Below are positions 5,976-57,897 of a stretch of 64,000 bases of DNA, piece by piece (the stretch's first letter is position 1; every line of letters begins with the position of its first letter). The stretch comes from Rhodoferax sp. (GTDB taxonomy: Bacteria; Pseudomonadota; Gammaproteobacteria; Burkholderiales; Burkholderiaceae_C), in the NCBI GenBank assembly GCA_030697375.1, contig JAUYQD010000071.1, forward strand, positions 27,088 to 91,087. Reading direction: 5' to 3'. The notes beneath the pieces were generated by a model. That model made no database searches. It saw nothing but the letters and a program-made list of their open reading frames with translations, and was not told where the DNA came from. The translations under genes and the position numbers were made by a program.

Positions 5976-6788
5976 TTACCTCTGGAGCTGCGCTGTAGCA
6001 CTGGCGTGCAGGCAAATCGCGGCGGCGGCGGCCACGTTGAGCGACTCCTCTCCGCCGGGCTGCGCAATGCGCACATGCAGCTGGGCCATCGCCTCCAACT
6101 CGGAACAAACACCCTGCCCTTCGTGCCCCAGCGCCCATGCGCACAGCGTAGGCAGCTCCTTAGTTTGCAGCGCCTGGTGCAAAAATGAGCCCCGATGCGA
6201 GCTGGTTACAAGAATCGGCAACGCCAGTGCTGCCAAATCCGGCAGCTCCACACCTTCGGTGAGCTGCAAGCCCCAATGGGCCCCCATGCCGGCGCGCAGC
6301 ACCTTGGGGCTCCACAGGGCGGCCGTTCCCTTGAGGGCGATGATCTGCTTAAAACCAAAGGCCGAGGCACTGCGCAAAATGGAGCCGACATTGCCCGCAT
6401 CCTGCACGCGGTCCAAAATGACGGAGGCCATGGCAGGCTGTAGCGCGGCTGCATTGGGCAAATTCACCACAAAACCCATGCTGGCGGGTGACTCCAGACC
6501 ACTGATATCACGGAACAGTGCGTCCGGAATCACTATGTTTTTAATAGCTGCTTGCGCCCAATCTACGGGGGCTAAAGGCCTGGACTTGGGGTTTTGCCAA
6601 AATGACTCGGAAAAAACGCCGACTTCGGGCTGCACACCCCGCACCATCGCCGCACGGCACAGGTGGTCACCCTCGGCCCAAAAACGGCCCTGCTTGCGGT
6701 ATGCGGTGTTGTCCTGTGCCAGCCGGCGCAGGTCCTTCAAAAAGGCATTGTCCCGCGAGGTGATGTGCTGGGCTGGAGCGGCACTCAT
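5976..6788 (-). CDS. TrmH/SpoU-family RNA methyltransferase
   Basis: [18 protein letters not shown] and [18 protein letters not shown] motifs. Confidence 0.92.
6130..6171 (-). repeat. Dispersed 42-bp spaced motif, copy inside the TrmH-family CDS
   Basis: GCTGC AAACTAA GGAGC TGCCTACGCT GTGCGCATGG GCGCT; exact spacing, but the most divergent copy. Confidence 0.55.
6532..6573 (+). repeat. Dispersed 42-bp spaced motif, copy inside the TrmH-family CDS (antisense)
   Basis: ACTAT GTTTTTA ATAGC TGCTTGCGCC CAATCTACGG GGGCT. Confidence 0.85.
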
Positions 6789-7420
6789 CGCAAGACCTCC
6801 GCCACGGGGCGAAAAGTTTTTCGATGCTGGGGGCAGGCGCCGTGCAACTGCAGCGCCGCCAGGTGTTCGGCCGTCCCATAACCCTTGTGTTTGGCAAAAC
6901 CATATTGGGGAAATTGCAGGTCGTACTCAGCGCACCAGCGGTCGCGGGTGACCTTGGCCAGAATAGACGCGGCGGAAATGGCAGGCACCAGCGCATCGCC
7001 TTGGACAATGGCCTCGGCCCGCACGTCCAGCACCGGCAGGCGGTTGCCATCAACCTGCACCAGTTTGGGTTTGAGTCGCAGCCCTTCCACCGCCCGGCGC
7101 ATGGCCAACAGAGTGGCTTGCAAAATATTCAGCTGTTCAATTTCTTCAACACTGGCCTGTGCAATGGAGCAGCACAGCGCCTTGGCGCAGATTTCGTCAA
7201 ACAACTTTTCGCGCCGCAAGGCGGTGAGTTTCTTGGAGTCTGCCAATCCTTTGATGGGCTGGAGATCGTCCAGAATCACGGCAGCGGCTACCACAGGCCC
7301 AGCCAGCGGACCGCGCCCGGCCTCGTCGACACCCGCGACGAGAAGACCGGGGATGTCCCACATCAGTGCGGCTTGTTGCGTGGTGGCTGGGTCAGCCTTG
7401 GAGTACTTGCTGGATCGCAT
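6785..7420 (-). CDS. rnhB: Ribonuclease HII
   Basis: [20 protein letters not shown] and [11 protein letters not shown]; start overlaps the lpxB end. Confidence 0.96.
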
Positions 7421-8552
7421 GGGCGGCTAATTGGGGGGTATCGCGTTGAAGTTGCACATGCAACTCCGCAAACTTGTTTTGCACAAGGGTAATTTTTTCG
7501 GGATTGGACGCCTGCGCATCCAGCCATTCCAGCACCGCTGCGGCGAGTGCCTTCGGTGTGGCGGCGTCTTGCAGCAGTTCCGGCACGACAAAGTCCTGGC
7601 ATAGGATATTGGGCAATCCCACCCAGGGCTGCAATTTTTTGCGCCGCATGATCTGCCACGACAGCCAGCCCATGTGGTAGGCAATCACCATGGGCCGCTT
7701 GAACAGCGCCGCCTCCAGCGTCGCCGTTCCGCTGGCAATCAGCGTGACATCGCAAGCCGCCAGAACGGTGTGCGACTGTCCCCGAACGATCTGCACATGC
7801 TCCCACATGCCGCTGGCATGGGCGGCCATCTCAATCTGCGCGTACAGGGACGGCACCGCAGGCACTATGAATTTGATAGCTGCTTGCGCCCGTTTTATAA
7901 GGGCTGCAACCTGAAAGAACCGAAAAGCAAGGTGCTGGATCTCGGACTTCCGGCTGCCAGGCAGTATCGCGACCACGCGGTCCTCGTCGGCAAGCCCCAG
8001 CTGGGCCCGGGCTGCGGACCGGTCAGGCACCATGGGAATGACCTGGGCCAGCGGATGGCCAACGTAGGTGGACGCAATGCCGTGCTGCGCCAGCAAGGCC
8101 GGCTCAAACGGAAAGATGCACAGCACATGGTCCACACTGCGGCGGATTTTTTCGACGCGCTCAGGGCGCCAGGCCCAGACCGAGGGCGAGACAAAATGGA
8201 CAGTCTTGATGCCCTGCATCTTCAGTGCGGCCTCCAGATCCAGATTGAAATCCGGGGCGTCGACCCCGATAAACACATCAGGACGTTGCAGCAACAGCCG
8301 GGCCTTGAGTTGCTCGCGTATGCCTACGATTTCACGGTAACGGCGCAACACCTCCCAGCCATAACCGTGCACAGACAAAGTGTCATGCGGCCACCAGGAT
8401 GCAAAGCCGCGCCGATTCATCTGCGGGCCACCGATTCCCACGGCTGTCGCAGACGGCCAGCGTGCACGCAAGCCGTCCAGCAGCAGTCCGGCCAGCAAGT
8501 CGCCCGACGCTTCACCTGCCACCATCGCCAGTTTGACTACGTCGTTCGACAC
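7392..8552 (-). CDS. lpxB: Lipid-A-disaccharide synthase
   Basis: [24 protein letters not shown] and SGTATLE motifs. Confidence 0.97.
7864..7905 (+). repeat. Dispersed 42-bp spaced motif, copy inside lpxB (antisense)
   Basis: ACTAT GAATTTG ATAGC TGCTTGCGCC CGTTTTATAA GGGCT. Confidence 0.85.
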
Positions 8553-20771: not shown

Positions 20772-21755
20772 ATGGCTTTTGCCCCCCCCGTGAAATACTT
20801 GGCCCTTGCTGGCCCCACCGCCGCAGGCAAAACGGCTGCGGCCCTGGCCATCGCACGGGCGCACCCGGTGGAGATCATCAGCGTGGACTCGGCGCTGGTG
20901 TACTGCGGCATGGACATTGGCACCGCCAAGCCCAGCACACAGGAAATGGCGGAAGTCCCCCACCATCTCATCAATATCCGAGACCCGCTGCAACCCTACA
21001 GCGCGGCGGAGTTCGTGAAAGACGCCCAATTGCTCATCAAGGACATTGCGGCGCGCGGCAAATTGCCCCTGCTGGTGGGCGGCACCATGCTGTATTTCAA
21101 GGCGCTGGCCGATGGACTCGACCCCATGCCCGCCGCCAACGCCGAAGTGCGGGCAGCACTGGAACTGGAAGCACAAGCCCACGGTTGGCCCGCCATGCAC
21201 GCCGCGCTGGCGGTGGTGGACCCGGTCACCGCAGCCCGTTTGGCACCGGCGGATAGCCAACGCATCCAGCGTGCGCTGGAGGTCTACCGACTGTCAGGCC
21301 TGCCTTTGTCACACTTTCACGCCGCCAAAAATGCTATCAAAACAGAAGCTGCTCACGCAGATTCCACGGGGGCTGGAGCCCTAATTTCATTAGAACCAAC
21401 GCAACGCAGTTGGTTACACGAGCGGATTGCCCAACGCTTTGACGCCATGCTGACCCAGGGTTTTTTGGACGAAATGCGCGCCCTGCGTGCCCGAGGCGAC
21501 CTGAATCCCGACCTGCCCGCCATGCGCTGTGTGGGCTACCGCCAGGCGTGGGAGGCGATGGATGGTGTATTTTCCATGGCCGAATTGCGCGACCGCGGCA
21601 TTTTTGCCACCCGCCAACTGGCCAAACGCCAGATTACCTGGCTGCGCTCCATGCCGCACCGCCATGTGGTGGCCTGCGATCACCCGGACGCACTGGCCCA
21701 GGTTTTGCGGCATGTGCGCGAAACCCTCAACGCCGCCCCACAACACCGCCAGTAG
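20772..21755 (+). CDS. miaA: tRNA dimethylallyltransferase
   Basis: GPTAAGKT P-loop, [14 protein letters not shown] and [11 protein letters not shown]. Confidence 0.97.
21333..21374 (+). repeat. Dispersed 42-bp spaced motif, copy inside miaA (sense)
   Basis: GCTAT CAAAACA GAAGC TGCTCACGCA GATTCCACGG GGGCT. Confidence 0.85.
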
Positions 21756-25052: not shown

Positions 25053-25130
25053 GCAATGCTCTCTTTCAATGCGCCAAGGGCAGGACGCATGAAAATCAGA
25101 ACCGCATAAACACAGGGACTGGATTCATCA

Positions 25131-25212
25131 CACTTCCTACGCTGGCATGACCCAGATCAGGTTCATGGGGTATCTCTCAGTCCGCCGCTTGGCGGGCACC
25201 CCCGGTGAAAGC
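25131..25212 (-). promoter_or_regulatory. TPP riboswitch
   Basis: Minus strand GGGGTGC...CTGAGAGATACCC...GAACCTGATCTGGGTCATGCCAGCGTAGGAAG, the canonical THI-box. Confidence 0.96.
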
Positions 25213-25267
25213 AGGATTGTAGGGGTCGAACGGGTAGACAGCTGCGGGGCGCAATCTGCCCCAGCTT

Positions 25268-30699: not shown

Positions 30700-30767
30700 A
30701 CGACAGCCACGCGCCCGGCCCCCCCCTTGCCCGTGCGAATTGATACACGGGGAAACAACGCACTTTT

Positions 30768-30809
30768 GCTACTTAATTGATAGCTTCCTACGCTTTATTT
30801 TAGAGGGCT
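30768..30809 (+). repeat. Dispersed 42-bp spaced motif, intergenic copy upstream of the ABC exporter
   Basis: GCTAC TTAATTG ATAGC TTCCTACGCT TTATTTTAGA GGGCT. Confidence 0.85.
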
Positions 30810-30878
30810 GGTGGTCAATTTGACTCCTATTCTCCGAATCAACTTGCATCGCCCAAAATTCGCCCCATGTAGACCCCC

Positions 30879-32654
30879 ATGACCACTGAACGCGCCAAAT
30901 CCCAGAATCCCAAGTCTCTCTCCGGCCTGTTGCCGTTCTTGCGGCCCTATCGCGCGCATATTGGTCTCACTCTGGTGCTTTTGGTTCTGGCCGCGGTAGC
31001 CACTTTGGCTTTTCCAATCGCCCTGCGCAGTCTCATCGACAGCGGACTGGTGCAGTCTGACAAAGGTGCGCAAGTGATGGCTTTGCGGGACCACTTTGCC
31101 ATCTTGTTTGCAGTGGCGGTCGCGCTGGGCCTGTTTTCTGCGGGGCGCTTTTACATGGTGAGCTGGTTGGGTGAGCGCGTCACGGCCGACCTGCGCAATG
31201 CCGTCTACAGCCACGTGCTGGAACAAAGCCCGGAGTTTTTTGAAACCACACAGACGGGTGAAGTCCTTTCGCGTCTAACCGCCGACACCACCTTGGTGCA
31301 AACCGTAGTCGGATCCTCCCTGAGCATGGGCTTGCGCAACAGCGTCATGGGACTGGGGGCGCTGGCCATGCTGGTGTGGACCAATCCGCTGGTGATGTTC
31401 CAGGTGCTCTTGGTGCTGGTGCTGGTGGTGGTGCCTAGCCTGTGGTTTGGACGGCGGGTGCGCAAACTCTCCCGCGCCAGCCAGGACCGGGTGGCCGACT
31501 CCAGCGCCATCGCCGCCGAGGTGCTCAACGCGATTCCCGTGGTGCAAAGTTACACCGCCGAAGGGCGCGAGGCACAGCGCTTTACCACCTCAACCGACAA
31601 CGCGTTCGATACGGCAGTACGGCGGACCCGCGCCCGCGCGGTATTGGTGGCATTCATCATCATTGCCACCTCGGCAGCCCTGCTGTGGGGCCTGTACCAG
31701 GGCACGCAGGCGGTGATGGCCGGGCGCATCACCGCAGGGCACCTGGGACAAACGGTGGTCTACGTCATTATTTTGGCCAGCGCCTTTGCTATTCTGGGCG
31801 AGGTGTATGGCGATCTGTTGCGCGCGGCCGGGGCCACCGAACGGCTAATGGAACTGCTGGGCACCCGCTCCCCCATTACTTCACCGTCAAATCCGGCGCT
31901 AGCCCCCGTGCCTGTTGCGGGAAGCGCTATCAAATTCGAAGCAATTCAATTCAACTACCCCTCACGGCCGCTGCTCCCGGCTCTGTCCGAGTTTTCGCTG
32001 GACATTCAGCCTGGACAAACGGTGGCCATCGTGGGGCCCAGCGGAGCGGGTAAAAGCACGGTTTTTCAGTTGCTGTTGCGGTTTTACGATCCCCAATTCG
32101 GGCGCATTGTGCTCGACGGCGTAGGTACCCGAGACATGTCCCTTGGTGAGTTGCGCCACCGCATTGGCATCGTTCCGCAGGACGCCGTGATTTTTTCCAG
32201 CAGTGCCCTGGAAAACATTCGCTACGGAAAACCCGAGGCTACGGATAAGGAGGTCATGGTGGCGGCCCAAGCTGCTTTTGCCCATGAATTCATCACCGCC
32301 CTGCCCGAAGGCTACAACACCTTTTTGGGGGAGCGCGGTTTACGCCTGTCTGGCGGACAGCGCCAACGCATTGCTATTGCCCGGGCCATGCTGAAGAACC
32401 CACCGCTGCTTCTGCTCGATGAAGCCACCAGTGCACTGGACGCCGAAAGCGAGCGCATGGTGCAGGCAGCCCTGGAATCGGCCATGCGTAACCGCACCAC
32501 CTTGGTCATTGCCCACCGGCTGGCCACGGTACAAAAAGCCGATTGCATTGTGGTGCTGGACCATGGCAAGTTGGTGGAGCAAGGTACCCATGCTGAATTG
32601 GTGGCGCGGGGAGGCGTCTATGCAGGTCTGGCGGCGCTCCAATTCAATGCTTAG
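30879..32654 (+). CDS. MsbA-related fused ABC transporter (TMD + NBD)
   Basis: Six TM helices, GPSGAGKST, LSGGQRQR and LLLDEATSALD. Confidence 0.93.
   Translation: MTTERAKSQNPKSLSGLLPFLRPYRAHIGLTLVLLVLAAVATLAFPIALRSLIDSGLVQSDKGAQVMALRDHFAILFAVAVALGLFSAGRFYMVSWLGERVTADLRNAVYSHVLEQSPEFFETTQTGEVLSRLTADTTLVQTVVGSSLSMGLRNSVMGLGALAMLVWTNPLVMFQVLLVLVLVVVPSLWFGRRVRKLSRASQDRVADSSAIAAEVLNAIPVVQSYTAEGREAQRFTTSTDNAFDTAVRRTRARAVLVAFIIIATSAALLWGLYQGTQAVMAGRITAGHLGQTVVYVIILASAFAILGEVYGDLLRAAGATERLMELLGTRSPITSPSNPALAPVPVAGSAIKFEAIQFNYPSRPLLPALSEFSLDIQPGQTVAIVGPSGAGKSTVFQLLLRFYDPQFGRIVLDGVGTRDMSLGELRHRIGIVPQDAVIFSSSALENIRYGKPEATDKEVMVAAQAAFAHEFITALPEGYNTFLGERGLRLSGGQRQRIAIARAMLKNPPLLLLDEATSALDAESERMVQAALESAMRNRTTLVIAHRLATVQKADCIVVLDHGKLVEQGTHAELVARGGVYAGLAALQFNA
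31901..31942 (-). repeat. Dispersed 42-bp spaced motif, copy in the ABC TMD-NBD linker (antisense)
   Basis: GCTTC GAATTTG ATAGC GCTTCCCGCA ACAGGCACGG GGGCT. Confidence 0.8.
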
Positions 32655-48940: not shown

Positions 48941-49025
48941 TGGTGCCGTCGGCGAGACTCGAACTCGCACAGCTTTCGCCACTACCCCCTCAAGATAGCG
49001 TGTCTACCAATTTCACCACGACGGC
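48941..49025 (-). tRNA. tRNA-Leu(GAG)
   Basis: 85 nt with GCCGTCG/CGACGGC acceptor stem, CTATC-TTGAGGG-GGTAG anticodon arm, long variable arm, GTTCGAG T-loop and encoded CCA. Confidence 0.97.
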
Positions 49026-54053: not shown

Positions 54054-55373
54054 TCAGGGGCGCTGCATCTTGCAGGTGGTTGCCTGCTCCGCGGCGGCGG
54101 CAGCAATGCTCTTGACCACGCGAAAGCCGTAACCCGAGCCTTCCACGTCGAACTTCACACCGGGCGTCCCCGCCCTGTCCATCACTCCCACCACCAAAGG
54201 CTGCTGAAACTGGTGGTCGGCCGCGCGCATGGCACCGGATTGACCACCAAAAGTGACGTTAGCCCGCTCCAGCTGTGCGCCAACAGCTACCAAATCCATA
54301 GCATCGGCTGGGACTGAACTGGCGCCTTGCTTGCCCGCACCGTCAATGGCCTGCGCCAGCGACTCCACCATCAACTGCATGCGCATGTGCACGTAGTCGT
54401 CGGCGCTCTGGGGGTAACGCACCCGAAACGATTTGTAAAACGCCTCGCTGGCGGGGGTCTGCACATTGGGCAACCAGTCGGCCACGGCCACCACCTTGCC
54501 CACGCCCGCGTCGCCGATGGCGGCGGGTGCGCCCAGCGCATTGCCGTAGAAGGTGTAGAACTTGCCGTCATAGCCCGCGTCTTTCGCCGCTTTGATCAGC
54601 AAGGTCAAATCATTGCCCCAGTTGCCGGTGATGACGGCCTGCGCGCCACTGGCCTTGATTTTGGCGGCATAGGGCAAAAAGTCTTTCACCTTGGCCATGG
54701 GGTGCAGCTCTTCGGCGGCAATCTGCACATCGGGGCGCTGCAACCCCAGCTGGCGCTTGGCCTCGCCCAACACGGCTTTGCCAAAGCTGTAGTCCTGCCC
54801 GATCAGGTACACACTTTTGAGCGCCTTGTCGTCCTTGACCACGTCCATCAATGCGGCCATGCGCATGTCGGCATGGGCGTCAAAACGAAAATGCCAAAAG
54901 CTGCATTTCTCGTTGGTCAGCGCCGGGTCTACCGCCGAATAGTTCAGAAAAATCACCCGTTTGCCCGGCTCACGCTCGTTGTGTTTGTTGATGGCATCGA
55001 TCAGAACGCCGGCCGTGGCCGACGAATTGCCCTGCAAAATGAAACGCGCGCCGTTGTCGATGGCCGAACGCAAAGCAGACAGCGCCTCTTCGTTGAGGCC
55101 TTTGCTGTCAAACCGCTCCAACACCAGCGGCTGGGCGCCACCCGCCGCACCGAAGGGCTTGACACCGCCCCGCGCGTTGACGCGTTCCACCGCCCACGCC
55201 AGGTTGCGGTACACCGCCTCCCCGGCATTGCCGGTCGGGCCGCTCAAGCCCTCAATCATGGCCAGTTTGATCCCGGTGGGCGCCGTCTGTGCGAAGGCTG
55301 TAGAGACCGCCAAAGCTGCGGCAAATAGCGCCGCAGCGCCCGATTTCAAGACCTGGGAATGAAGAATAAACAT
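54054..55373 (-). CDS. Branched-chain amino acid ABC-type periplasmic binding protein (LivK/J fold), standalone
   Basis: Signal peptide, NYSAVDP, QDYSFG and ITGNWGNDL; no permease genes adjacent. Confidence 0.88.
54261..54302 (-). repeat. Dispersed 42-bp spaced motif, copy inside the binding-protein gene (sense)
   Basis: GCTAT GGATTTG GTAGC TGTTGGCGCA CAGCTGGAGC GGGCT. Confidence 0.75.
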
Positions 55374-55467
55374 GCTGAAATTTCTCTTGAAATGAGAGGG
55401 AAGAGACGCAGCTTCTGTCCATGCGGCGCTCAATGTGAGAGCCGCGCAGTGTACTAGGAGTCACACC

Positions 55468-55857
55468 ATGTTTTTCGCTACCGCCCCCTCCCCCCTGTCC
55501 TCTGGTTTGCGTCGCCAGGCCTATGCACATGCGGGCCGCACGGTGGACCGTTTTCTGGACGATGCCCTCTGCTCCGCCCGCCAACAAGGGGCGGCCTACA
55601 CGCAGGACGACACAGCCTTCACCCTGACGCTGGACATGCCCGGCATCGCCAAAGACCAGTTGAGCATCGCGATTGAAGGCGCCGTGGTGCGCATCAGCAG
55701 CAAAGAAGGTGCGCCGCGCCGCTACCGTGCCGCCTACGAGCTGCCCCAGGATGTGGACACGACCCAGAGCGAAGCCAAGCTGGAAAACGGCGTATTGACG
55801 CTGAAATTGGCCAAAAAAGTCCCGGTGAAAAACAGCACCGAGTTGCCGATTCAGTAA
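55468..55857 (+). CDS. Hsp20/alpha-crystallin small heat-shock protein
   Basis: LTLDMPGIAKDQLSIAIEG and AKLENGVLTLKL; AGGAG RBS. Confidence 0.92.
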   Translation: MFFATAPSPLSSGLRRQAYAHAGRTVDRFLDDALCSARQQGAAYTQDDTAFTLTLDMPGIAKDQLSIAIEGAVVRISSKEGAPRRYRAAYELPQDVDTTQSEAKLENGVLTLKLAKKVPVKNSTELPIQ

Positions 55858-55874
55858 AGAAGCCAGCAGCAGGC

Positions 55875-55916
55875 GCTCTCATTTTAGGAGCTGCCCGCGC
55901 TTATTCCACAAGGGTT
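55875..55916 (+). repeat. Dispersed 42-bp spaced motif, intergenic copy between convergent hsp20 and tsaD
   Basis: GCTCT CATTTTA GGAGC TGCCCGCGCT TATTCCACAA GGGTT. Confidence 0.82.
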
Positions 55917-55927
55917 AGCGGTGGTTT

Positions 55928-56983
55928 TTATATGGAATGCAATGGCCAGCGCGGCTTGACGTCAAAGGCGTAGCTGGTGCTGGCCTCTTGCAAGCCGCTT
56001 TGCAGGCGCATGGCCGCAGCCATGGCGATCATGGCGCCGTTGTCGGTGCACAAATGCAGCTCGGGGTAATGCACCCGCACCCGGCGCTTGGCGCACTCGG
56101 CGTTGAGTTGTTCGCGCAAATTGCGGTTGGCTCCCACGCCGCCCGCGACCACCAGACGGCTCAAACCCGTCTGCTTCAAGGCGGTCAGCGACTTCTTCAC
56201 CAGCACCTCCACAATGGCCGCCTGGGTGGAGGCCGCCAGGTCGCGGTGGGCCTGCTCGGGCAAATCCTCAAACCGGGCCGCTCCGGCCGCCGCCACCATT
56301 TTTTGCGATTGCACCAGCACCGCCGTTTTCAGGCCCGCAAAGGAAAAATCCAAATTGCCGCTGTGTAACAGCGGGCGTGGCAAAGCGTAGGCCTTGGGGT
56401 TGCCGGTGTCGCCCAGCCGGGCCAGTGCCGGGCCGCCGGGATAGGCCAGGCCCATGAGCTTGGCCGACTTGTCAAAGGCCTCGCCCGCCGCATCGTCAAT
56501 CGATTCACCCAGCAGTTCGTAGCGCCCTACCCCGTCCACCCGCATCAACTGGGTGTGCCCACCCGACACCAGCAGCGCCACAAACGGAAATTCCGGCGGG
56601 TCTTCACTCAAAAACGGCGAGAGCAAATGCCCTTCCAAGTGGTGCACCCCCAGCACCGGTTTGCCCAAAGCCGCCGCCAGCGCGCAGGCCACGCCCGCCC
56701 CCACCAACAAGGCACCGGCCAAGCCCGGGCCCCGGGTAAAGGCCACCACATCGACCTCGGCCAGGCTGCGCCCGGCGCCAATCAGCACCTCTTGGGTGAG
56801 CGGCAGCACCCGGCGAATATGGTCGCGGCTGGCCAACTCGGGCACCACCCCGCCATAGGCCTGGTGCATCTCGATCTGGCTGTACAGCGCATGCGCCAAA
56901 AGCTCGGGCACCCCCTGGCTGCGCGTTTGCACCATGGCCACACCTGTTTCGTCACAGGACGATTCAAACCCCAAAACCAACAT
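55928..56983 (-). CDS. tsaD: tRNA N6-threonylcarbamoyltransferase TsaD
   Basis: [29 protein letters not shown] and CTDNGAMIA. Confidence 0.98.
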
Positions 56984-57117
56984 GTTTTTTTCCTGAAAAT
57001 GGCGGAACGGACCGCAGCCGGCAAAGCAAACCCGCGCTGTCCCCGCAGTTGACCGCGAGTTTAGAGGAAGCAGCAGGTGCTGTGTGTAGGCACAATCCGT
57101 CGTAACCACCCTGCCCC

Positions 57118-57897
57118 ATGCCAAACACCCCTACCCCACTCGCCGACGGCGACATCGAAACCCTGGAACGCGCCACCCTGGATGCCGTGGCGCCCCCGGC
57201 CGTGGAAGAGATCGACGGCTGGTTGCTGCCTTTTGACGACTCCACCATAGGCCGTGCCAAAAGTGCGGTTCCACTGCGGCACGACCACCGGCACCACGGG
57301 GCAGAAGCGGCCATGATTGAAACCATGGAGGCGCGTTACGCGGCGCACGGCTTGTCGCCCGCCTTTCGCGTGGCCGATGTGCCAGGCCTGGCCTTGGTGC
57401 ATGCCGCGCTGGCACGCCGGGGCTACCAGGCGCAACAACCCACTTTGGTGCAAACCGGCACCACTTTGCGCCTGCGCCAGGCCTGCCACGACACCCCAGC
57501 CCCTGTCAGCAACAGCCCCCATGCGGCCTGGTCTGGCGTCTACCTGGCCGAAGGCTTCGACCCGGTGGATGGCGCCCACCGGGTGCAGGCGCTGAGCCGC
57601 AGCCCGCATGTGGTCTACGCCAGCGTGGTGGAAGCAGGCCTGCCCGTGGCCGCCGGCACCGCTGCCTTCAGCCAGGGCTGGGCCAGCGTGCACGGCATGC
57701 GCACGGTGCAGAGCGGGCGCGGGCGGGGTCTGGCCGGTCGCGTATTGGCCGGGCTGGCCGACGCGGCACTGGCCCGTGGGCTGGAGCGCGTTTTTTTGCA
57801 AGTCGAAGAAGGCAACACCGCCGCTTTGGCGCTGTACCAGCGGGTGGGTTTTGCCACCGCCTGGCGCTACCACTACTGGCGTCGCCCCACGGACTAA
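57118..57897 (+). CDS. GNAT-family acetyltransferase
   Basis: C-terminal motif A ([10 protein letters not shown]) and motif B ([13 protein letters not shown]). Confidence 0.88.

Follow-up and report, generated by a model that had tools for sequence, protein, structure and literature searches.

How does an essential enzyme come to carry, in the codons of its structured core, a DNA motif that recurs throughout the genome? This question is raised by lpxB, the gene for lipid-A-disaccharide synthase, in the stretch of DNA analysed here (the window), 64,000 nucleotides (nt) of a Rhodoferax sp. genome (GenBank assembly GCA_030697375.1, contig JAUYQD010000071.1, positions 27,088 to 91,087 of the forward strand), in which a first reading of the letters alone (the original prediction) had noticed a short motif lying over the gene. 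Short bacterial repeats are usually held to be either extragenic and spread by insertion, such as repetitive extragenic palindromic (REP) sequences, miniature inverted-repeat transposable elements (called MITEs) and Rickettsia palindromic elements (RPEs), or very short and built by substitution, as are uptake signals. What is new here is a long repeat that is held in place in the structured core of an essential enzyme, and in at least four other genes, and that, across at least 25 genera, tracks the abundance of its family. In our preferred reading, to which we give a probability of roughly 0.6, the copy in lpxB is an ancient family member that has stayed in place and has most likely been maintained by short-tract templated conversion, filtered by selection on LpxB.

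The repeat family and its copy in lpxB

The host gene matches Escherichia coli LpxB (5W8S/5W8N) over residues 7-383 of its 386 (phmmer, E = 2.5e-78) and lies in the gene order lpxD-fabZ-lpxA-lpxB-rnhB. The forward-strand letters of 7864-7905, inside lpxB, are ACTATGAATTTGATAGCTGCTTGCGCCCGTTTTATAAGGGCT, and their antisense translation lies a few residues past the LPGSRKSEI of LpxB. The original prediction had placed the motif within lpxB, in antisense and after LPGSRKSEI, which the open reading frame (ORF) and its translation bear out, and had described the local DNA as AT-rich, in agreement with the string CGTTTTATAA found in the segment and with a GC content of 0.43 in 7864-7905 and 0.48 in 7855-7918, compared with 0.61 for the whole of lpxB. 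At 64 nt (7855-7918), the copy is longer than the 42 nt first marked (7864-7905). It aligns without gaps to positions 4-67 of the 76 in the family profile (nhmmer, 40.7 bits) and scores +45.5 bits against a position matrix derived from 208 intergenic copies only, the same matrix giving a mean of -116 (standard deviation (SD) 21) for random windows of the genome. In the lpxB copy, the stem sequence GCTAT is always replaced by ACTAT.

The family was characterized in the source assembly (5.78 Mb in 115 contigs, 60.6% GC). A repeat search of the window grouped the lpxB segment with 6524-6573, 21325-21374 and 55867-55916, and a profile built from 62 copies in the genome found 631 matches across the assembly at E <= 0.01, of which 328 reach E <= 1e-10; about 630 copies in 5.78 Mb correspond to one per 9 kb. 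The element is about 65 nt long, with an informative span of about 57 nt and a GC content of 47-48%; the consensus contains CTTTTGCTATTAATTTAATAGCTGCTTGCGCACATTCTACGGGGGCTAGAGGCCTATTTGG, the stem GCTAY-N7-RTAGC and the conserved boxes TGCT[YR]CGC and GGGGGCT, and its information profile tapers gradually at both ends. About a third of the copies are intragenic; by crude gene calls, 141 of the 510 copies with E <= 1e-6 lie wholly within predicted genes. The two orientations are balanced (100 vs 99 copies), and 121 of the 141 intragenic copies occupy two of the six reading frames, translated as ...LAPVExAQAAIKxIA... (antisense) and ...FATxLIAACAHSTGA... (sense). Five intragenic copies (in lpxB, miaA, hrpA, a TrmH-like and an MsbA-like gene) are backed by alignments of orthologues.

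Rfam gave no match at any copy of the repeat; its only hits in the window are ordinary features unrelated to the repeat, a thiamine pyrophosphate (TPP) riboswitch and a tRNA gene (25116-25213 and 48944-49025, both on the - strand). RNAalifold, run on the family, returned no consensus fold; the 5-bp stem GCTAY/RTAGC is paired in 90% of cases, yet its covariation does not go beyond that of shuffles, and an alternative TAGC/GCTA pairing failed when tried. The idea that lpxB holds the master copy of the family was rejected: the other copies come without lpxB flanks, the lpxB copy has ACTAT for GCTAT, and equivalent copies exist in four other genes.

Overlay, family abundance and codon choice

Three sets of lpxB orthologues were aligned: 29 from the whole genomes of relatives, 80 from named genomes of Rhodoferax, Polaromonas and Curvibacter (the closest being 'Burkholderiales bacterium RIFCSPLOWO2_12_FULL_61_40', at 91% identity) and another 30, which cover 25 further genera within the same GTDB family. 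None of these 139 orthologues has a gap in codons 209-233, and residues 213-236 of E. coli LpxB (5W8S), a helix-strand segment, also align without a gap (HMMER). Because neither the 139 orthologues nor E. coli LpxB are gapped here, the copy lies over a helix-strand segment that was already there, and an insertion in lpxB is ruled out by equal length. The original prediction had judged the segment to be of normal length and the motif to be written over it by substitution; both views hold, and the search for insertions or deletions (indels) that it had proposed found none.

Scored over the homologous 57 informative bases, the orthologues are bimodal, 66 of the first 110 reaching +2 to +52 and the others -20 to -104. 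To relate these scores to the family, whole genomes were searched for the pattern GCT-N11-AGCTGCTYRCGC, which gives 302 copies in the source genome and, when reversed as a control, 0-8 per genome; genomes were then grouped by family count alone as family-bearing (at least 10 copies) or family-poor (fewer than 10). The lpxB score is positive in 39 of 40 family-bearing vs 7 of 39 family-poor genomes (Fisher p = 3e-14), the seven holding 3-9 copies each, and it correlates with family count (Spearman rho = 0.79). The 19 family-bearing genomes of the further set, which represent 18 other genera, all score positively (+4 to +50). The same motif is present at the same lpxB codons in about 85 other genomes; the family itself reaches at least 20 copies in only about 25 of 166 genera surveyed, and taxa that lack it elsewhere also lack the motif in lpxB.

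The coupling is seen even within genera, where family counts of 543 vs 8 (genomes G310 and G171) go with lpxB scores of +50.5 vs +3.5, 104 vs 3 with +19.9 vs -71.5, 50 vs 2 with +10.8 vs +3.1, and 69 vs 7 with +18.6 vs -25.6. Given such boom-and-bust counts (8 to 543 in one genus), the responsible factor should be findable by phylogenetic profiling. In a FastTree phylogeny of LpxB made after removal of the motif columns, lineages without motif and family fall inside lineages that have both on at least eight occasions, with local support of 0.9-0.99 (for example, L084 vs L078/L096/L066/L090, L039 vs L048/L109, and L004 vs L008). Because of this repeated nesting, shared ancestry alone does not explain the coupling of the lpxB copy to the family.

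The motif is also independent of the amino acids it encodes. The original prediction had named a match forced by conserved residues as one of two outcomes that would refute it, and this is ruled out both by natural controls that encode the same peptide and by codon statistics. Two orthologues, L053 and L059, encode AAALVKQARPAIKLIVPAV, a peptide near-identical to that of L007, yet they score -33 and -24 vs +42.5, because they use the ordinary codons GCC, ATC, AAG and CTC where motif-bearers have GCT, ATA, AAA and TTG/TTC. Over lpxB as a whole, pairs with the same residue also share its codon to a similar extent in the two groups, the fraction being 0.49 for family-bearing and 0.46 for family-poor genomes. 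In the family-bearing set, the 17-codon windows that start at codons 210-214 (spanning 210-230) are the top five of 369, at 0.67-0.74; in the family-poor set, codons 214-230 form a window that comes 352nd of 369, with 0.36. The codons in question are mostly rare in the rest of the gene: in family-bearing genomes, GCT encodes Ala225 in 38/38 and Ala215 in 92% of cases (13% elsewhere in lpxB), GCA encodes Ala216 in 89% (12% elsewhere), ATA encodes Ile229 in 33/33 (8% elsewhere), CTT encodes Leu218 in 68% (8% elsewhere) and AAA encodes Lys227 in 97% (54% elsewhere). By both the conservation ranks and the rare codons, synonymous sites do converge on the motif, which the original prediction had put forward as a second check.

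The lpxB site further follows the variant, or dialect, of the family carried by each genome. The box TGCT[YR]CGC differs from genome to genome: TCGCGC has a median share of 0.43 in the family of those genomes whose lpxB copy has ...TCGCGC (codon CGA, Arg), and of 0.14 where the copy has ...TTGCGC (CAA/CAG, Gln) (Mann-Whitney p = 5e-5 for Arg-type vs Gln-type genomes), with supporting sister contrasts in at least three clades. The protein itself is affected at Pro224, which is conserved in LpxB of the outgroups and of E. coli; it has become Ala, matching the consensus GCTGCT, in several family-bearing lineages that are separate from one another, the 543-copy genome among them. As the lpxB copy shows, sequence pressure of a non-coding kind can prevail in a core enzyme over the preferred codons and even over a conserved proline.

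Copies in other genes and between genes

Judged by their alignments, the TrmH-like, MsbA-like, MiaA and HrpA genes behave as lpxB does. The copies and host genes of the window are listed in Table 1.

Table 1. Repeat copies and host genes located in the window
Feature	Position	Strand	Remarks
TrmH-family RNA methyltransferase gene	5976-6788	-	ORF; two genes downstream of lpxB, with rnhB between
Weak half-copy in TrmH-like gene	6108-6183	-	matrix score +7
Copy in TrmH-like gene	6524-6581	+ (antisense to gene)	nhmmer E = 3.8e-14
Six-residue insertion in TrmH-like gene	6590-6610		QNPKSR
lpxB, lipid-A-disaccharide synthase	7392-8552	-	ORF, 386 residues; host of embedded copy
Copy in lpxB	7855-7918	+ (antisense to lpxB)	ungapped nhmmer, E = 6e-10; codons 212-233
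Copy in miaA variable loop	21325-21388	+ (sense)	nhmmer E = 7.4e-15
Intergenic copy upstream of MsbA-like exporter gene	30759-30828	+	nhmmer E = 9.3e-8
Copy in MsbA-like ATP-binding cassette (ABC) exporter, linker between membrane and ATPase domains	31881-31946	- (antisense to gene)	nhmmer E = 4.6e-4; encodes ALAPVPVAGSAIKFEA
Weaker copy inside ORF 54054-55433	54240-54310	-	nhmmer E = 1.9e-4
Copy between 55435-55857 and 55928-57124, overlapping gene end	55866-55937	+	nhmmer E = 7e-10

At the TrmH-like locus, synteny is kept in 101 of 109 loci and the copy is found at the same site in 84; about 100 syntenic orthologues are of equal length, with the motif at the same position and only in family-bearing genomes. 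The same gene holds a weak half-copy, and here the 543-copy genome (G310, L227) has a full copy of 43.5 bits that differs by 12 inserted nt together with substitutions, whereas the source genome and the low-copy congener (G171, L228) have the half-motif only (L031 was also compared); on this alignment, the full copy looks like a patch taken from a donor and not like the insertion of a whole element. Directly upstream of the embedded copy, the TrmH-like protein has a lineage-specific insertion of six residues, QNPKSR, which is common to the source genome, L031 and L038, is doubled as QNPESRQNPESR in L079 and resembles a small tandem repeat adjoining the motif.

The 26 orthologues of the MsbA-like exporter are likewise of the same length, with motif-like DNA only in family-bearing genomes, the family-poor ones encoding the same residues with GC-rich codons. 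In miaA, the copy is at the same site in 10/10 family-bearing orthologues and absent from 9/10 family-poor ones, the loop being of nearly equal length; in two genomes a second copy follows in tandem and lengthens the protein by 34 to 45 residues. In one complete genome (L164, G010), miaA is split over two frames that meet exactly at the repeat copy, with a stop inside, so that either the gene is frameshifted or the repeat was sequenced wrongly. In the linker of HrpA, a near-perfect single copy (74.6 bits) fills an interval of 91 residues, exactly that of family-poor relatives, and the source genome and its closest relative each carry a pair of copies, 96 nt apart, which add 42 residues (hrpA, contig C7:26381-30670, outside the window). 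With these two tandem copies translated in the variable linker, the protein exceeds that of family-poor relatives by about 90-130 residues. Of the intergenic copies, the one upstream of the MsbA-like gene differs in presence among relatives by a length of about 70-110 nt, seen in few genomes and with an upstream region that is only partly syntenic.

That no insertion ever took place is firmly established by the alignments for lpxB only, where distant families and E. coli agree; in the other genes, the nested family-poor lineages may owe their length to a copy-bearing ancestor. Since re-insertion at the lpxB site is impossible, the lpxB copy demonstrates maintenance in place, and it serves as a fixed-locus probe by which family members are seen to be kept where they are and not merely renewed by transposition.

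Maintenance of the copy and comparison with known systems

The lpxB copy is not a decaying relic. In the reading that we favour, the family would be a dispersed, hairpin-bearing repeat of about 65 nt in the Comamonadaceae, with an ancient member at the same position in lpxB orthologues that was laid onto existing helix-strand codons with the length of the protein unchanged. Where the family is abundant, a family-dependent process would hold this copy near the consensus, the price being rare codons and now and then a changed residue; where the family is lost from a lineage, the copy would dissolve into GC-rich codons with little change in the peptide. The process is most likely conversion, by ectopic gene conversion or by template switching, for which the many dispersed copies would be the donors and purifying selection on LpxB a filter that would let only length-preserving, structure-compatible tracts survive. 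We infer conversion, over selection for a shared function at the DNA or RNA level, as the maintaining force because the lpxB copy follows the dialects, Pro-to-Ala changes took place in parallel, the score rises with family size and the TrmH-like gene shows a 12-nt patch.

Several points weigh against this account. No conversion event was directly observed, and the seeding of the first copy in a sequence of weak similarity (outgroups score about -50 to -100) is left unexplained. Simple dependence on donor dose does not predict the strong lpxB copies of L087 (4 family copies, score +49) and L068 (14 copies, +52), nor L010, which has 20 family copies and no copy in lpxB. Dialect co-variation at a single site could reflect a lineage-wide mutational bias or the co-evolution of all sites with a binding protein. 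Finally, the family counts are approximate, coming from one strict pattern and in many cases from metagenome-assembled genomes, and the nesting is read from a single-gene FastTree phylogeny with a weak backbone, a first tree of 29 sequences having been too poorly resolved.

The second of these readings of the dialects belongs to a wider alternative, in which the copies are sites for a trans-acting protein, or have a function at the RNA level, and are kept by purifying selection with no conversion, so that loss of the factor relaxes all of them at once. Selection of this kind would account equally well for the coupling to the family, for the constraint on synonymous sites and for the repeated co-loss; shifts of dialect might stem from site-factor co-evolution, and equal orientations (100 vs 99) suit a site read in DNA. 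We nevertheless regard it as rather unlikely, as the contexts (a helix-strand core, loops, linkers and all intergenic classes) are so varied that a common function is hard to imagine, a range of 8 to 543 copies within a genus resembles replicative dynamics more than a regulon, the gain of a 12-nt patch and the in-frame tandem duplications point to copying, and no candidate factor was found, genes of the REP-associated tyrosine transposase (RAYT) type failing to separate the genome groups. It is very improbable that the lpxB copy is the remnant of an in-frame mobile insertion of the RPE, REP or MITE kind, followed by a compensating deletion and conserved by ancestry only. Copies that do add length (34 to 45 residues in MiaA, 42 in HrpA, and the intergenic differences) and a RAYT gene flanked by two strong copies in the source genome and its closest relative would fit such an origin, but the segment has an identical length in all orthologues examined, including those of other families and E. 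coli, and lies in a helix-strand position; overall divergence is equal in the two genome groups while synonymous conservation here is confined to the family-bearing set, and neither the repeated nested co-loss nor the tracking of dialects is expected of a passive relic. For a chance or compositional likeness of an AT-rich run of codons, nothing speaks except the shortness of the match first reported; with E = 6e-10, a score about 7-8 SD above random, and the same codons used in about 85 genomes, only where the family exists, it is practically inconceivable, and on profile E-value, matrix score and family coupling it was ruled out.

Uptake sequences have a core of 9-12 nt and occur at about one copy per kb. 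The original prediction had likened the motif to the DNA uptake sequence (DUS) of Neisseria and the uptake signal sequence (USS) of Pasteurellaceae, and the likeness stands for the mode of embedding (substitution, frames, orthologous conservation and dialects), whereas membership in this class was not established. In Haemophilus and Neisseria, uptake sequences in coding regions are written in codons without indels, with favoured frames, conserved positions and lineage dialects (Findlay & Redfield 2009, PMC2817400). Like these, the lpxB copy arose by substitution with no change in length and is kept at the same positions in orthologues; together with the two favoured frames (121/141) and the lineage dialects, this is what a true DNA uptake sequence, accumulating by point mutation and uptake bias, would lead one to expect. 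In contrast, the present element is about 65 nt long, contains a hairpin, is 10-20 times sparser (one copy per roughly 10-20 kb), and shows intergenic presence/absence lengths, indels, tandem in-frame duplications and the gain of a 12-nt patch; it also uses rare codons where uptake sequences use preferred ones (PMC2817400). We therefore consider this explanation improbable. The ~65-nt, hairpin-bearing repeat nevertheless acts like the substitution-built signals inside essential genes, being encoded by codon choice.

RPEs, as reportedly described by Ogata et al. in 2000, are inserted in frame and lengthen the protein by 30-50 residues, in most cases within loops at the surface. The present family resembles them as a dispersed repeat that lies in frame in housekeeping genes, is translated and is common to orthologues across species; it differs in that the lpxB copy adds 0 residues and overlays a helix-strand segment, and in that the family is shorter and only weakly palindromic. 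What seems to be an earlier sighting of the family was listed by Tong et al. (2017) in Polaromonas naphthalenivorans CJ2, where ATAGCT(N)22CAAAAG has 125 copies, 18 of them in genes, and was termed a 'potential novel motif'; among the genomes of that study, which gives counts and locations only and no evolutionary analysis, motif pairs were most numerous in Rhodoferax ferrireducens T118 (PMC5217627). The CJ2 motif shares the ATAGCT core and the geometry of the present family, one copy in the source genome fits it, and it is probably, by this resemblance, a dialect of the family. The Beta-proteobacterial repeat elements (BRE) of Polaromonas, Rhodoferax and Bordetella (Hot et al. 2011) are about 90 bp long, have 69% GC, form tandem arrays and are in some cases intragenic (PMC3110155). 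From this description the present element (~65 nt, 47-48% GC) appears to be a different one, identity with BRE having been rejected on length and GC content.

A more far-reaching version of conversion is possible, if doubtful: that the family spreads by overwriting, templated conversion turning partly similar DNA, including essential coding sequence, into copies that are then re-corrected. If so, the fidelity of the written-in copies (lpxB, TrmH-like, MsbA-like, miaA and hrpA) would report the activity of the system, and overwriting would be a new mode of propagation for bacterial selfish DNA; we know of no description of it for elements of the REP, MITE or RPE type. Irrespective of this, the system is tractable for testing gene conversion, or DNA-level selection, on populations of repeats.

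A RAYT gene flanked by repeat copies is the hallmark of REP-RAYT systems. The source genome has two RAYT-type genes. RAYT1, a Y1 transposase of 246 residues (C65:26581-27321, in the region C65:26455-27404, outside the window), is flanked on both sides, 30-60 nt away, by copies in the same orientation (57-63 bits), which are also present in the closest relative G063 (L188) but not in G066. Its orthologues occur in only 3 of 22 family-bearing genomes, all close relatives, with fragments in a fourth. RAYT2 is present in 20/21 family-bearing and 17/19 family-poor genomes, and PF01797 genes are found in nearly all genomes regardless of family status. Dependence of the family on RAYTs was rejected, as RAYT presence does not separate family-bearing from family-poor genomes. 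REP and REPIN populations with their RAYTs consist of hundreds of short hairpin repeats that are inherited vertically, persist for long and decay in individual lineages (Bertels & Rainey, PMC3116915; bioRxiv 10.1101/2021.07.10.451892). The present family is similar in its hundreds of hairpin repeats, its long persistence, its lineage-wise decay and the one RAYT flanked by two copies; it differs in that REPINs are extragenic whereas 141 of 510 copies here are wholly intragenic, and in that RAYT1 is missing from most family-bearing genomes and RAYT2 also occurs in family-poor ones. A weak copy (21-36 bits) lies, at one and the same position, over the 3' end of RAYT2 (C30:63496-63552, and in L190, L197, L203 and L208), one of the genomes concerned being family-poor.

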